A stretch of DNA of 7,586 nt from Escherichia coli (lineage in GTDB: Bacteria; Pseudomonadota; Gammaproteobacteria; Enterobacterales; Enterobacteriaceae), in NCBI RefSeq assembly GCF_003334815.1, contig NZ_QOWO01000067.1; one strand, given 5' to 3'. Below, piece by piece: positions 1,548 through 7,586 of this stretch (the first letter of the stretch is position 1; every line of letters starts with the position of its first letter). The notes under the pieces were generated by a model. That model was not told the DNA's origin. It made no database searches and saw nothing but the letters and a program-made list of their open reading frames with translations. Position numbers and translations under genes: made by a program.

Positions 1548-1960
1548 AACCAGTCTCCGTTGCTCATAAACAAATAGAAAAAACAAACATGCTTCATACA
1601 TGCAATGTATATTCAATTATAATGAAAAAACGGTCTTTCTGAAAGGACAAATGCAACATAAAAACACGATAAATTGCATGTACATTGTACACACAACTTT
1701 AAGACCAGAGGAAATCATAGATACAAAAACATTATGAAGGTTATATGTGACACATAAATGCAATATAAAAACATCGTGGACATCATGGTTCAGGTTAAGG
1801 GAAAAGGAATGAAATGGTGAAACTGAGAGGAAAGGAAAGCGGTGACGAATCATGTCACCATAAACAGAAAGATGTCTAATGGGGACTCTTTAGGTACGTG
1901 AAGAATCCCCATAACGCATTTAAAAGACACACATCAGATACCCTTAAGGTATCCGATAGT
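1548..1960. promoter_or_regulatory. parC-like centromere/promoter region upstream of parMR, also the downstream flank of the ParA/RHH pair
   Basis: AT-rich non-coding stretch with repeated ATGCAA/TTGCAT units (around 1600, 1650, 1673, 1758). The unit AAATGCAA(C/T)ATAAAAACA occurs twice (about 1649..1667 and 1756..1774). Palindromes: ATACATgcaATGTAT near 1596..1610, GGTGAC-N7-GTCACC at 1839..1857, GATACC-cttaa-GGTATC at 1937..1953. The position matches a type II centromere/promoter; exact binding sites are not determined. Confidence 0.55.
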
Positions 1961-2269
1961 TTATTGACCTATTGCACCATCACGTTCAAGCTTCTCTCTT
2001 ATAGCCTCAATAATATATGAGCTAAAATCCAGAGATGTTTTACTGGTCGCTTTAAGTTCCGCATGAGCTTCAAAATACGACAGCGGTATGGCCTTAAGAT
2101 TCTTAGCCTTCGTCCTGGCAGCCACGGGACGACCTGAAACTTCCTCTGCACCTTCATTTGGCTGAGACGGGGCTGTTGCTGTTACGGCAGAAGAAGAAGT
2201 TTGTAATCTGGCAGAATCCACCAGGTTTTTCAGTTTTTCAGCCTGTGCACTAAATTTCGCTTTGCTCAT
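1961..2269 (-). CDS. Small ribbon-helix-helix-like DNA-binding protein, candidate ParG/ParB-type partner of the upstream ParA-like ATPase
   Basis: 102-aa ORF directly downstream of the ParA-like gene on the same strand. The C-terminus (AIPLSYFEAHAELKATSKTSLDFSSYIIEAIREKLER) fits a beta-strand/helix/loop/helix RHH pattern, preceded by a low-complexity, probably flexible N-terminal tail. Shine-Dalgarno is weak and an 86-bp gap separates it from the ParA-like stop, so the assignment is an inference from context. Confidence 0.55.
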   Translation of the reverse strand: MSKAKFSAQAEKLKNLVDSARLQTSSSAVTATAPSQPNEGAEEVSGRPVAARTKAKNLKAIPLSYFEAHAELKATSKTSLDFSSYIIEAIREKLERDGAIGQ

Positions 2270-2355
2270 GAGATAACCCAGGATGTTTGTTAGATACTTA
2301 AAAGATATCCATTAAAAGCCCAAAGGATACTATATGGATACCCAATAGACACACC

Positions 2356-3000
2356 TTACTGTTTGTTATTTTCAATCAGATGATTGATTTCTTCGATCAG
2401 GGCAATAACTTCCTTACCTCCTGCCGAATAGCGCCCATGAACAGACTCAGTGATTCCCATCCCAGTCTCAATGACATCCTCAAATTCTGCACGAGCAGAA
2501 ATGCGGCTCTTCATCAGCTTCAGATGTTTGAACGATGGCAGGATTGCATCAAGCTTAGGGAATTTCTTCTTGTTAGGATTAACTTTACAGAGATACAGGT
2601 GAGCAGTTATATCGGTCCCCATGATAGAGCTGATTTCGTCCAGTACTCCATCAAAATGCATCAAACCAATACGTTCAGTCAGGGAGTCTTTTGAAGGGAC
2701 AATAACGCAGTCTGCAAAGGCAATCGCAGTACGGGTAAGATCTGAGTCAAATCCCCCACAGTCAATAAGTAACGTCTTATCGCTGTTCTTGTAGGGAGTC
2801 ATAATTTCGATTAACTCATCCACTGTTTTGGGTACTTTCACGGAAATTTCTTTTCCTTCAGGTCTCAGCCCCAGAATGATAGAAAGCCCGGTATGAGTAT
2901 CCAGATCAACTGTATCAGACTTCATTTCACCAACAATGTTTACGGATGAAGTTGTCTTACCCACACCACCTTTGGGATGCGTATTAGCAATAACAGGCAT
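2356..3000 (-). CDS. parA: Small ParA-family (ParF-like, type Ib) deviant Walker-A partition ATPase
   Basis: Deviant Walker A KGGVGKTT near the N-terminus, LLIDCGG and a VIVP Walker-B-like hydrophobic strand. Start placed at ATG 3000..2998 (M23 of track ORF 2356..3066), with GGAG 7 nt upstream, giving 214 aa, the size class of type Ib ParA/ParF proteins that lack an N-terminal HTH. Confidence 0.8.
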   Translation of the reverse strand: MPVIANTHPKGGVGKTTSSVNIVGEMKSDTVDLDTHTGLSIILGLRPEGKEISVKVPKTVDELIEIMTPYKNSDKTLLIDCGGFDSDLTRTAIAFADCVIVPSKDSLTERIGLMHFDGVLDEISSIMGTDITAHLYLCKVNPNKKKFPKLDAILPSFKHLKLMKSRISARAEFEDVIETGMGITESVHGRYSAGGKEVIALIEEINHLIENNKQ

Positions 3001-3179
3001 AGTGTATCTCCAGAATCCACATGTAATACCCATAAAGACCCCATAAGACACCTTTCGGATATCCAAGAGGTACTCAATAGATGTTTTTTTACTCTATACC
3101 GGTCCTGCATGTCAACAGAATATGAAATACCGATAATATATCCATGAGATATCCGAAAGGGATTTAAAAAAGTCAGAGC
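3001..3179. promoter_or_regulatory. Promoter/operator region upstream of the ParA-like gene
   Basis: Non-coding gap between the recombinase stop (3180) and the ParA-like start (3000). Contains the palindrome GGATATCC (3057..3064) and GATATCC (3148..3154), related to GGATAC/GATACC motifs on the other side of the operon. Confidence 0.4.
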
Positions 3180-4410: not shown

Positions 4411-4495
4411 CATGCGATAACGTCATCCATCATCACTGCCCTTACCGTCACTCCGTCTGATAACATCATGCCGTTATCATCATCACCATGATAAC
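4411..4495. repeat. GATAAC/CATG repeat cluster, candidate recombination site or operator for the adjacent recombinase operon
   Basis: GATAAC at 4416..4421, 4459..4464 and 4490..4495, inverted GTTATC at 4473..4478, and CATCATCAC twice (about 4429..4436 and 4479..4486). Three GATAAC copies abut CATG. Lies 40 to 120 bp upstream of the operon start at 4374. Confidence 0.35.
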
Positions 4496-4811
4496 AAGCA
4501 TCCATATAACCACGCCGTTAAATTACCGGAGAGCCGTTTCCGTCAGATCCGACTTTTCGGAATATCACAACTTTCCGGAAGTGTACCACGCTGAGGAAAT
4601 AATCATATCGCTGTTTTCCGCCCCTGCGCGGCGCATCACAGGTCAGGGAGATGACACAACATATAGTGTCATCAGCAGCTGAATCCGGCACCACATGTTG
4701 TGCTGACGGGAGGTGGCGTTGTGTGGGGGGAGAAGAAGATCCGTAACCGCCGGAAACCGGATCTGCGCGGCGGGAAACGGGCAAGTGATATGGTAATTGA
4801 GCAATACACAC

Positions 4812-4942: not shown

Positions 4943-5197
4943 ATGGATGAAGAAAGGGTGTTTTCACTCAGCTATGAGCAACTAACCCGAATAGCGGAAA
5001 AAAATATCCGTGAATGTGGGCTGGACAACCAGAGCGCCAGGTGTATCAGTGAACTGAAGGCCTCAGCTCTGCTGTGGTTGTGGTATGAACTGGCCATTCA
5101 TGGTGCGCCACAGAACAATCACGCACAGGCCCGGGAACGCATCGATACCGATTATCAGCGCCTCAAAAAACTCATCTGGTCGGAGGGTGACAGTTAA
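4943..5197 (+). CDS. Hypothetical 84-aa protein, first gene of a two-gene operon
   Basis: ATG at 4943 with GGAG about 10 nt upstream. The stop TAA (5195..5197) overlaps the next ATG (TAATG). No transmembrane segment; family not recognised. The + strand is preferred over the long antisense ORF (5063..5803, -), whose translation is an Arg/Pro/Ala-rich artefact typical of the reverse strand of a GC-rich gene. Confidence 0.55.
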   Translation: MDEERVFSLSYEQLTRIAEKNIRECGLDNQSARCISELKASALLWLWYELAIHGAPQNNHAQARERIDTDYQRLKKLIWSEGDS

Positions 5198-5787
5198 TGA
5201 CTCAGAGCCGCCGACCGTCGCCACTGCAGCGGAGAGTGCTGATTGTGCTGGCTGCGCTTGATGAAAAACGGCCGGGCCCCGTGCTGACGCGGGACCTGGA
5301 ACGGGTGCTGGAGCGAAGCGGGGAAGCCCCGGTCTACGGGCCAAACCTGCGCGCCTCCTGCCGTCGTCTGGAGGATGCCGGCTGGCTGCGTACCCTGCGC
5401 GCCCCGAACCTGCAGCTGGCAGTGGAGCTGACGGACGCCGGCCGGGCCGTGGCACAGCCTCTGCTGCTGGCAGAACAGGACCGCCTCCGGGCAGAACAGC
5501 GTGCGGCAGAAGTCGTCGTACTGCCGCTGGTCCCGGCAGCAGGTCTGCCCGCAGACGGCACTTCTGCCACTGATCTGGCGGTGGAGCTGAACGGCATAAC
5601 GTATCAGGCCTGCCGCGGGGATTTTGTGGTGCGTCTCGACGGCAGCACCTGTCTGCAGTTATGGAATAAAGAAGGCAGGGTGGTACGCCGGGAGGGCGAT
5701 CCGCTGGAAGTGGCGCAGTGGCTGCAGGCCTGTCATGACGCAGGAATAGAGGTTCGCGTACAGATAAATGAAAGTGCCGCTCCGTAA
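5197..5787 (+). CDS. Hypothetical 196-aa protein, possible winged-helix DNA-binding N-terminal domain
   Basis: ATG at 5197 overlaps the upstream stop. The N-terminal ~90 aa (LQRRVLIVLAALDEKRPGPVLTRDLERVLERSG...) has the hydrophobic/charged periodicity of a winged-helix domain (inference). The C-terminal ~100 aa is unrecognised. Markedly GC-rich compared with the rest of the window. Confidence 0.55.
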   Translation: MTQSRRPSPLQRRVLIVLAALDEKRPGPVLTRDLERVLERSGEAPVYGPNLRASCRRLEDAGWLRTLRAPNLQLAVELTDAGRAVAQPLLLAEQDRLRAEQRAAEVVVLPLVPAAGLPADGTSATDLAVELNGITYQACRGDFVVRLDGSTCLQLWNKEGRVVRREGDPLEVAQWLQACHDAGIEVRVQINESAAP

Positions 5788-5806: not shown

Positions 5807-6154
5807 TTACACATCATCCCATGGTGGCAGCCGGTTAACTTTCCTGCGCCACCAGTGGAAAGAGGCCATGCACAGTCCGAACAAAAAACCACCCGTGATA
5901 CTTATAATAATGGCCTCACCTGCCACCATTCCTGACGGCCCCCAGTAGGTAAACCACATTACACATCCCCAGGAAATGCCCCATAAGCCCCCCGTCAGCA
6001 CCGTGACCTGCCAGAACGGCATAAAGGGTAATGGCGGAAGCCGGATACCCAGCCGCCATAGAATACGCAGAAGAGGAGGGGCATAATTGCTCCGCCACAT
6101 CTTTTTGCTGTCCATCAGGGCAATGGCCCGGGCTTTTTTCTGCTCAAAGGTCAC
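5807..6154 (-). CDS. Small inner-membrane protein (two predicted transmembrane helices), function unknown
   Basis: 115-aa ORF with a GTG start at 6154..6152, preceded by GGAGG at 7-nt spacing. Two hydrophobic segments (VTVLTGGLWGISWGCVMWFTYW and MVAGEAIIISITGGFLFGLCMASFHWW) and a positively charged C-terminus. Convergent with the 196-aa gene (19-bp gap between stops). Confidence 0.55.
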   Translation of the reverse strand: MTFEQKKARAIALMDSKKMWRSNYAPPLLRILWRLGIRLPPLPFMPFWQVTVLTGGLWGISWGCVMWFTYWGPSGMVAGEAIIISITGGFLFGLCMASFHWWRRKVNRLPPWDDV

Positions 6155-6192: not shown

Positions 6193-6260
6193 TTATTGTT
6201 ATTGATTATTATTATCATGCTGTGATTATGTTATCACGCACCGGTACACGATAACAATAA
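6193..6260. promoter_or_regulatory. Inverted-repeat-flanked promoter region upstream of the immunity gene
   Basis: Perfect 10-bp inverted repeat TTATTGTTAT (6193..6202) and ATAACAATAA (6251..6260), separated by 48 bp that contain two TGATTAT-N-TTATCA(T/C)G direct repeats. An AAGGAG Shine-Dalgarno lies 7 nt before the ATG at 6273. Confidence 0.4.
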
Positions 6261-6272
6261 AGGAGAAACCAG

Positions 6273-6620
6273 ATGAAACTGGATATATCTGTAAAGTATT
6301 TACTGAAAAGCCTGATACCAAGCCTCATTATTCTTACAGTTTTTTATCTGGGATGGAAAGATAACCAGGAAAATGCAAGAATGTTTTATGCGTTCATCGG
6401 ATGCATTATCAATGCCATTACTTTTCCTTTTTCAATGAGGATAATACAGAAAATGGTAATAAAGTTTACAGGGAAAGAACTCTGGCAAAAAGACTTCTTT
6501 ACAAATCCAGTTGGCGGAAGCTTAACTGCAATATTTGAATTATTCTGTTTCGTTATATCAGTTCCTGTGGTTGCCATTTACTTAATTTTTATATTCTGCA
6601 AAGCCCTTTCAGGAAAATGA
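6273..6620 (+). CDS. Pore-forming colicin immunity protein (colicin Ia/Ib-type, three transmembrane helices)
   Basis: 115-aa protein with three hydrophobic helices (LIPSLIILTVFYLGW; MFYAFIGCIINAITFPFSM; LTAIFELFCFVISVPVVAIYLIFIFC). Convergent with the colicin gene, 17 bp from its stop, which is the arrangement known for immunity genes of pore-forming colicins. Its length matches my recollection of the Ib-type immunity protein, unverified. Confidence 0.8.
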   Translation: MKLDISVKYLLKSLIPSLIILTVFYLGWKDNQENARMFYAFIGCIINAITFPFSMRIIQKMVIKFTGKELWQKDFFTNPVGGSLTAIFELFCFVISVPVVAIYLIFIFCKALSGK

Positions 6621-6637
6621 AAGGGCATCATTATGTG

Positions 6638-7586
6638 TCAGATACCAATAAGTTTATTGACCTGCTCAATAAACTTATCATTAACAAGCGCACTCACAGC
6701 CGCCATAATAATTGCAAAACCCAGAATACCTACAGGGGTTCCCAGCATGACGGAAAACGTCCATGCTGTAACTGCTGAAGCAGCTCTTCCTGCTGCCAGT
6801 GATTCAAGTTTTACAAAAAATGGACGCCAGTTGTCCGTTTTTACAGCCTTTTGTAACTCCACAGCAACATCATAACGATCAATAACTTTTCCGGTAAAAC
6901 CAAATGCCTTACTGAACAGCTTAAAATTCTCCGCCATATGGACCTGATTAATAGCTTCCAGGGCTTTAGAAATGGCCATGCGATCTTGTATGCTATATTT
7001 CTTGTTCAGATTATTACGGAATTTATCAAAAGCGTTCAGTGCATCATCCACACTCTTAATCTGTTTCCCTTGAGATACAGAAGCCAGCTCCTTAGCAAGT
7101 TCGGATGCTTGTTTACCGAACTCATCATATATCGTTCTGTAGAAATCAGAGGTGAGTTTTATGGCATCCTTTACCATATTTATTTCATCCCTTTTTCTTT
7201 TCTCTTCCGCTATTTTCTGATTGATGTCAGCAAGCTGGCTACGGATATTCTCTTTTTCCTTCAACAGGGCATTAAGAGCGTCATTTGCATGCTTTTGTTC
7301 ATTTGTTCTGGCACTGACGTTATTTCTCGCCGAATTTATCGCAGATTCAGCAGAGGTGATTTTATTTCTGGCATCAAGCAATCGTTGCCGTAACTTATCC
7401 CATTCAGCAACTTCAGCATTATAAATTTTCTTGTCACCTTCCACATCCTCTGTAACCACCGGATTCCGGTCATTCAGAATATTGCGTTTATAGTCCAGAC
7501 CGGAATGGGTCAGAAGATAATTCAGGTTTGCACGGTTATCGATGACTGCGCTGGTTGTGATTTTTATCGTACCGGCAAATCTCGGA
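6638..7586 (-). CDS. Pore-forming colicin of the Ia/Ib family, 3' portion (channel-forming domain); 5' end lies beyond the window
   Basis: The frame is open from the window edge (first full codon 7585..7583) to TGA at 6640..6638. The track's GTG start at 7459 is an internal valine: manual translation upstream of it continues without stops (...TTSAVIDNRANLNYLLTHSGLDYKRNILNDRNPVVTEDVEGDKK...). The C-terminus (...DNWRPFFVKLESLAAGRAASAVTAWTFSVMLGTPVGILGFAIIMAAVSALVNDKFIEQVNKLIGI) has the hydrophobic helical hairpin of a colicin channel domain and matches my memory of colicin I-type sequence. Confidence 0.85.
   Translation of the reverse strand, partial: PRFAGTIKITTSAVIDNRANLNYLLTHSGLDYKRNILNDRNPVVTEDVEGDKKIYNAEVAEWDKLRQRLLDARNKITSAESAINSARNNVSARTNEQKHANDALNALLKEKENIRSQLADINQKIAEEKRKRDEINMVKDAIKLTSDFYRTIYDEFGKQASELAKELASVSQGKQIKSVDDALNAFDKFRNNLNKKYSIQDRMAISKALEAINQVHMAENFKLFSKAFGFTGKVIDRYDVAVELQKAVKTDNWRPFFVKLESLAAGRAASAVTAWTFSVMLGTPVGILGFAIIMAAVSALVNDKFIEQVNKLIGI

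Follow-up and report, generated by a model that had tools for sequence, protein, structure and literature searches.

We consider it probable, at roughly 0.7, that the 86-bp spacer between the ParA-like gene yefA and the small gene yegA on an Escherichia coli plasmid fragment is an array of eight iterons, the middle one of three such arrays, which YegA would bind as centromere and operator of a partition locus resembling those of type Ib. The repeat anatomy of the spacer, the restriction of its repeat to the par locus, and the conservation and co-variation of the arrangement across a whole gene family are observed directly, and are presented in this order below. An earlier note on the same DNA had offered three readings of the spacer, namely an internal promoter or operator, an internal centromere, or a sign that the downstream gene is not the true partner of the ParA-like gene. 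The centromere/operator reading now has the best support, the internal promoter fares poorly and the idea of a wrong partner is refuted, as detailed below.

The window, by which we mean the whole stretch of 7,586 nucleotides that was analysed, is a piece of IncI1/IncI-gamma plasmid backbone, and for the 1,351 bp around the gap there are matching sequences in 1,139 plasmid records, mostly of conjugative plasmids of E. coli and Salmonella; in 958 of these records the identity is at least 99%. The gene order in R64-style annotation is resD - yefA - yegA - parA (ParM-like) - parB (ParR-like). All coordinates refer to the window, in which yefA (R64 naming; the ParA-like gene) lies on the minus strand at 3000..2356, with its ATG at 3000 and its stop codon at 2358..2356, and encodes 214 residues; yegA, on the same strand at 2269..1961, is an open reading frame of 102 residues whose product we propose as the centromere-binding protein. 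The 86-bp gap at 2355..2270 extends from the yefA stop to the yegA ATG, exactly as the earlier note had delimited it, and the R64-style annotated record gives the same interval.

The YefA protein begins MPVIANTHPKGGVGKTT and carries the N-terminal deviant Walker A motif KGGVGKT without any N-terminal DNA-binding extension. It matches the Pfam families MipZ, AAA_31, and CbiA, the ParA-like group of PHROG (E 9e-23), and the NCBIfam model ParA_partition over residues 3-203 (E 1.6e-14), in the last case with 53.9 bits, which is below the curated cutoff of 180; in more than 1,000 plasmids the product is labelled "ParA family protein". These matches place YefA, as a small Walker ATPase, in the ParA/MinD superfamily.

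Directly downstream of yegA, at 158-1616 on the minus strand, lies a pair of genes for a ParM-like protein (open reading frame of 349 residues) and a ParR-like protein (138 residues), so that the region forms a tandem double par locus. The segment in front of this pair, 1595-1773, has repeats of its own, AAATGCAAYATAAAAACA present twice and the inverted elements TACATGCAATGTAT / ATAAATTGCATGTA; these surround the promoter-like sequence TTCAGA-16-TATAAT and make the segment a candidate parC.

The motifs of GGATAC type to which the earlier note had drawn attention are indeed enriched: GGATAY occurs 17 times in the window versus 6.7 +/- 2.8 times in shuffled sequences, none of 200 of which reached 17, with three matches in the gap and five more in two flanking non-coding regions. 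What the earlier note had missed is that these motifs are the cores of 11-bp units, eight of which make up the gap in a single register and a single orientation. Written in rows of 11, the gap reads GAGATAACCCA / GGATGTTTGTT / AGATACTTAAA / AGATATCCATT / AAAAGCCCAAA / GGATACTATAT / GGATACCCAAT / AGACACACC. The array thus spans the gap completely, from the stop codon of yefA to the start codon of yegA. The core of the iteron is GATAYC and its consensus is AGATAYCYnAT on the plus strand of the window, or ATnRGRTATCT on the strand of the operon; the units at 2271, 2292, 2303, 2325, and 2336 are good representatives, while those at 2281, 2314, and 2347 are degenerate. Autocorrelation of the gap is 0.44 both at lag 11 (z 3.4, a value reached by 1 of 2,000 shuffles) and at lag 22 (z 3.1, reached by 3 of 2,000), with no other peak, lags 10 and 12 being at background.

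The same iteron recurs on both sides of the gene pair. With a weight matrix trained on the units of the gap only, the density of matches (per 100 bp) is 9.3 in the gap itself, 5.0 over the 100 bp that follow yegA, and 3.5 over the 170 bp that precede yefA, versus 0.9 in the rest of the window. We then scored for arrays of six units in 11-bp phase the complete IncI plasmid p95 (94,881 bp), which is 100% identical over the query region: the three highest phased scores belong to the gap (44.3), the region upstream of yefA (36.1), and that downstream of yegA (28.2), against a background with a best score of 25.8, a mean of 3.8, and a standard deviation of 3.4. Given that the top three scores on p95 are those of the par locus, there is no sign of a plasmid-wide iteron regulon across its 94.9 kb, where only these three arrays stand out. 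Iterative refinement of the matrix collects 25 sites in the 403 bp of the three non-coding regions, again with consensus AGATAYCYnAT, a count that is biased by the training; for this reason we rely on the cross-validated figures of the gap-only matrix.

Upstream of yefA the iterons fall into two groups, which bracket a candidate promoter for this gene. The proximal group, 2999..3089, contains about eight iteron-like sites spaced by 9-14 bp and lies between the candidate promoter and the yefA start codon; the distal group, 3122..3168, lies upstream of the candidate -35 and consists of three iterons with 11-bp spacing (3122, 3133, and 3144) and a weaker site at 3158. The candidate promoter itself, located by eye at 3086..3115 on the minus strand, combines TTGACA (3115..3110), a spacer of 18 nucleotides, and the weak -10 element TAAAAA (3091..3086), which was missed by the consensus scan because it lacks the final T. 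The downstream array, 1870..1964, follows directly after the yegA stop with about seven iteron-like sites in both orientations. Two inverted iterons of this array form a terminator-like hairpin (TATCGGATACCTTAAGGGTATCTGATG) at 1958..1932 on the minus strand, followed by a T-rich tail, and consequently the same sequence could be at once a binding site and a transcription stop. Moreover, 30 nucleotides of the downstream array (1867-1896) are an inverted copy, at 80% identity, of 3027-3056 in the upstream array. The cassette is thus bracketed by inverted iteron blocks, which could matter for pairing or looping.

A question then arises as to whether the spacer is a peculiarity of the source plasmid; the earlier note had called the gap unusual for a type Ib operon and had proposed that its conservation be checked in homologous loci. 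We collected pairs of ParA and YegA-family genes from plasmid records, species-representative genomes, and metagenome assemblies (via distant family representatives), while a protein-profile scan of genome contigs returned six loci, two of them new. In all 17 distinct loci, which range from 99% to about 30% identity, a gene of the YegA family lies directly downstream of the ParA gene, and this constant synteny refutes the idea of a wrong partner. A gap of 45-95 bp, with repeats spaced by about 11 bp, separates the two genes in 16 of the 17 loci, from IncI and IncF plasmids, Klebsiella, Yersinia, Pantoea, Aeromonas, Photobacterium, and metagenomes. It measures 86 bp in three IncI/IncF variants, in Enterobacter (with corrected start codon), and in Huaxiibacter; 95 bp in a Klebsiella IncFII plasmid; 91 bp in a Salmonella IncF plasmid; 90 bp in Klebsiella pKPC-e4b7; 62 bp in Yersinia; 61 bp in both Aeromonas and Photobacterium; 56 bp in Pantoea; 53 bp in K. 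quasipneumoniae; and 45, 68, and 60 bp in three metagenomic loci. The sole exception is locus L025, on a short contig, in which the genes overlap. On the evidence of these loci, the spacer is the rule of the ParA+YegA gene family and not an anomaly of the plasmid in which it was noticed. It is unusual in comparison with the two other type Ib cassettes that were measured, in which the genes overlap by 4 bp (pESBL type) and 7 bp (pUTI89 type).

The periodicity of the spacer is also shared. Of the 13 loci of the first round, 9 reach a z value of 3.2 or higher at lag 11, and in two others the peak is at lag 12; among the further distant loci with a gap, two of three have z values of 2.5-2.8 at lag 11. 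The sequence of the repeat changes from clade to clade, with cores such as GGTATC, TGTATWT, GGAATCC/GGTTTCC, TGTACA, GATATC, ATGCT, and AAATAT, and the repeats of each gap agree with the upstream repeats of their own locus, usually also with the downstream ones. When the matrices of nine gaps were tested on the flanks of all nine loci (9 x 9), the matrix from a locus's own gap ranked first or tied first on its own flanks in five; the best matrix came from a close relative in two of the remaining four, and AT-rich motifs were to some extent recognised by one another's matrices. Close relatives of the window sequence all have a gap of 86 bp and retain the GTATC/ATATC cores, with drift in the fourth unit, a degenerate one. 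Conserved architecture combined with clade-specific sequence is the pattern that would be expected of an array bound by a cognate protein, and constitutes the strongest evidence that we obtained.

In two of these loci, from Klebsiella (L004, 2199-2345) and Enterobacter (L005, 2163-2222), another small conserved gene comes immediately after the "downstream" iteron array. The product of this gene in the Enterobacter locus starts MSQYTLKGRTPSG..., and the gene may belong to the cassette as its third member and be controlled in the same way.

What kind of protein would recognise these arrays? The YegA family comprises 76 cluster representatives (50% identity, E <=0.001), with members of 70-118 residues that share a common layout of N-terminal segment, variable linker, and conserved C-terminal block. 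In YegA these parts are a conserved N-terminal helix and the motif S/G-A-x-L-Q/K, a variable and disordered linker, and a conserved C-terminal stretch of 45 residues. The C-terminal pattern of YegA is K-x-L-K-A-I-P...F-x-A-H...K-T-S-L-D-F-S-x-Y-I-x-E-A-x-R-E-K-L-E-R-D and that of the family K-x-K-x-L-x-x-x-P-x-x-x-F-x-x-H-x-x-L-K-x-x-G-x-T-x-L-x-F-S-x-Y-I-x-E-A-x-R-E-K-L-E-R-D-G. The AF2 model of the monomer has helices at residues 6-19, 65-74, and 79-97. YegA had no match in Pfam, NCBIfam, or the set of PDB sequences, and it corresponds to PHROG 19714, which is annotated as "unknown function". No profile or fold search confirms the designation "RHH-like" used in the earlier note; the pattern of the sequence and the helices of the model are no more than consistent with it, and a ribbon-helix-helix fold is plausible.

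The N-terminal motif of the family, which in fuller form is S/G-A-x-L-K/Q-E/T and occupies residues 17-24 of the YegA of the window, is conserved family-wide despite the hypervariable, low-complexity linker that follows. This motif is a candidate for a peptide contacting ParA or stimulating its ATPase. In many GenBank/RefSeq records proteins of the YegA family are labelled "molecular chaperone GroEL", "chaperonin", or "molecular chaperone", and in others "hypothetical"; for proteins of 70-118 residues that are always found beside parA, the GroEL label looks like a propagated mis-annotation, and recognising the three-array architecture would correct this systematic error.

From these elements we infer binding by YegA, its stoichiometry, and the centromere activity of the arrays, according to the following scheme. 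Binding of YegA dimers to the iterons would be cooperative, with one dimer for about every 11 bp, a spacing near the helical pitch that would place successive dimers on roughly one face of the DNA. The three arrays would jointly form the partition complex, that is the centromere, and engage YefA through the conserved N-terminal peptide of YegA, while the upstream array would also autoregulate the yefA promoter by repression. Translation of yegA would start independently at its weak ribosome-binding site. The earlier note was right on the weakness of this site: the best duplex with the 3' end of 16S rRNA has -3.1 kcal/mol versus -6.4 for yefA, and the neighbouring parM-like gene and resD have -6.6 and -5.9 kcal/mol, respectively. 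This weakness is confined to the IncI/IncF clade; several others have GAGG at this place. Two features, the position of an array within the transcription unit and the weak Shine-Dalgarno sequence, could in addition keep the output of YegA low. A bolder version of this scheme, which we regard as rather unlikely, would make the internal array the principal centromere of a distinct partition family, in which a Walker ParA is combined with a ParR-like segrosome on 11-bp-phased iterons and assembly of the complex gates the synthesis of YegA by a roadblock feedback. If true, such a gating of binding-protein synthesis, made possible by the position of the array in front of yegA within the transcription unit, would add a level of control for which type I systems are not known to provide an example.

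The gap could instead contain a separate promoter for yegA that YegA represses via the iterons, so that expression of the binding protein would not depend on that of yefA, in the way of P-omega of pSM19035. This possibility, which is compatible with a role as centromere, would fit with iteron arrays preceding every gene of the cassette, including the further small gene of loci L004 and L005, and with the overlap of each pSM19035 array with a promoter. Two homologous loci even have sigma-70 candidates with 10 of 12 matches in or at their gaps, TGGACG-16-TATAAT in L006 and TTGACA-17-AATATT in L013, on account of which an internal promoter retains some chance. However, the position of these candidates is not conserved, and in the window no sigma-70-like site was found on the coding strand in or just before the gap, either at 9 of 12 matches or at the relaxed threshold of 8, nor any terminator-like site between yefA and the gap. 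We hold the promoter reading to be doubtful here; co-transcription of yefA and yegA through the gap is the economical reading and the most likely one. In a purely regulatory interpretation, YegA bound within the transcription unit would act as a roadblock or attenuator that cuts read-through into yegA and sets the ratio of ParA to YegA, with no part in partition of the array. In its favour, the array borders on the start of yegA, within what is probably one transcription unit, and the weak Shine-Dalgarno sequence also points to a low output of YegA; yet the same iterons are found downstream of yegA, where no roadblock of the operon is possible, and we judge this interpretation to be improbable.

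Even less credit can be given to the notion that the gap has no function and its periodicity is incidental, the DNA being no more than AT-rich filler or a remnant of the shuffling of cassettes. It is true that some units are degenerate and that AT-rich intergenic DNA gives many weak matches to the matrix, but the 11-bp periodicity recurs in gaps of unrelated sequence, the motif of the gap predicts the flanking arrays within each clade, and the array fills the gap exactly, with a length of 86 bp that does not change among loci whose gaps are 87-92% identical and that recurs in the unrelated clade of L005/L012. Finally, the gap might specify a leader peptide or a small RNA, or might form an RNA structure through which translation of the two genes is coupled, and two mechanical open reading frames of 20 and 25 residues, with GTG/TTG starts, do overlap it; neither is credible, a search of the gap in Rfam gave no match, the folding energy of RNA across the gap is no better than that of shuffles (z -0.29), and between clades the sequence of the gap is unconserved except for the periodic repeat, so that we attach next to no weight to this alternative. 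The array reading, by comparison, accounts for a gap iteron that also occurs upstream of yefA and downstream of yegA, and for homologous gaps that carry repeats of their own.

With respect to known partition systems, the locus shows several features of type Ib: a small Walker ParA (214 residues, in a class of about 200-230) with a deviant Walker A motif and no N-terminal DNA-binding domain, an adjacent small downstream gene, and flanking repeat arrays that cluster at the locus and co-vary with it. This combination suggests that the locus works like a type Ib system, even if it is not a member of the families of ParFG, delta/omega, pB171 par2, and pESBL. That small partition proteins bind arrays of iterons is already an established principle; what is new here is the tripartite, 11-bp-phased array that includes the spacer between yefA and yegA.

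The closest architectural precedent is the type Ib system delta/omega with parS1-3 of plasmid pSM19035 from Streptococcus pyogenes, which likewise has a Walker ParA, a small binding protein with a disordered N-terminal tail, and several separate arrays. The omega protein binds iteron arrays of 7-10 repeats each in front of delta, omega, and copS (PMC3074150, PMC5016525), one of which therefore sits between the genes for the ATPase and the binding protein. In contrast, the repeats of pSM19035 are contiguous 7-bp heptads, WATCACW, whereas the present ones are 11-bp units with the core GATAYC; moreover, the pSM19035 arrays overlap mapped promoters and the genes are separate transcription units, while no promoter is detectable in our gap. 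YegA has no similarity to the sequences of solved structures in the PDB and no Pfam match that would place it in the omega family.

The 11-bp spacing rather recalls parC/ParR of plasmid R1, a type II system in which ParR binds 11-bp iterons arranged in two blocks of five that flank the promoter, with about one dimer per iteron (PMC2241845). The layout upstream of yefA, with 3-4 iterons, the candidate -35, and then about eight iterons, is similar. However, R1 has an actin-like ParM and a ParR with N-terminal RHH, whereas the motor of the present locus is of the Walker ParA kind and its small protein has the conserved, putative DNA-binding domain at the C-terminus, and in R1 there is no array inside the operon; spacing and promoter-flanking layout are all that the two have in common.

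The par2 system of pB171 is also of type Ib; its operon is flanked by two repeat arrays, parC1 and parC2, and it lies beside a parM/parR locus. For it we used parAB of pUTI89 (locus L027) as a stand-in, the equivalence of the two being taken from PMC9800825. The genes of pUTI89 parAB overlap, instead of being separated by 86 bp, and are divergent from parM; its ParA is 19% identical to YefA (pairwise E 3e-4), hhalign gives a probability of 0.5% for the comparison of its ParB with YegA, and its repeats are TCACA/TTCAT-like, unlike the GATAYC iteron. In pUTI89 this unrelated type Ib cassette (16098-19555) occupies the same slot, from a resD-like integrase to parM/parR (PMC9800825). It seems, therefore, that different partition cassettes can be accommodated there.

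The only experimentally studied par system of IncI plasmids that we found is ParAB-parS of pESBL, from E. coli O104:H4, a type Ib system with experimental support that has arrays upstream and downstream of the operon and a ParB of about 100 residues without recognisable motif (PMC7602700). Its repeats are contiguous octamers, GATAACAA, and in the pESBL-type locus L015 parA and parB overlap; the locus of the window has neither property. We considered whether yefA-yegA could be this published IncI par locus and rejected the identification: the octamer is unclustered here, the primers for ParB (Hp7) encode a different protein, and the genes overlap there. Also rejected was the identification of the cassette-bearing plasmid of O104:H4 (H104) with pESBL, because it is the IncF plasmid pAA, and as such it allows no inference on redundancy with the pESBL par locus.

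The ParF/ParG-parH system of TP228, to which the earlier note had referred, similarly combines a small ParA with a small binding protein whose N-terminal tail is flexible and whose DNA-binding domain (putative in YegA) is C-terminal, and its repeats, which have AT-rich spacers, double as operator (PMC5016525). In TP228, parH and the operator are upstream only, whereas here arrays are also internal and downstream. YegA has no match to the Pfam family of ParG and, in a comparison of little power, showed no resemblance to a ParG sequence.

Our literature search, with yefA/yegA and with IncI1 combined with ParA, ParM, or resD, found no functional study of the yefA-yegA locus, even if over 1,100 sequenced plasmids of the IncI and IncF groups, from E. 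coli, Salmonella, Shigella, and Klebsiella, have the cassette in their backbone and ESBL/AmpC genes are present on many of them. Its three-array architecture provides testable candidates for centromere and operator, and the clade-specific repeats predict incompatibility determinants that differ between clades. The slot between resD and parM, with its unrelated type Ib cassettes of different gene spacing, could be useful for plasmid typing, curing, and incompatibility strategies.

The whole resD-yefA-yegA-parM-parR module is also found at 5145-8972 of the pAA plasmid of E. coli O104:H4 C227-11 (L014), an IncFIB/FII virulence plasmid for aggregative adherence, where it lies beside ccdAB and vapBC; its presence on an IncF plasmid indicates that the cassette moves between IncI and IncF backbones. 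Elsewhere in the window, direct and inverted repeats of GATAAC/GTTATC type occur in the non-coding segments 4416-4520 and 6193-6260, for example GATAACGTCAT / ATGCCGTTATC and TTATTGTTAT / ATAACAATAA, and flank a block with ydfA, ydeA (4943-5787), and a minus-strand open reading frame at 5807-6154. They resemble the pESBL ParB octamer, yet they are few and not in tandem. At the right end of the window (6273-7586) lies a gene for a pore-forming colicin of Ia/Ib type, which is on the minus strand and runs off the window; together with an immunity-like gene on the plus strand (6273-6620), it represents ordinary cargo of IncI plasmids.
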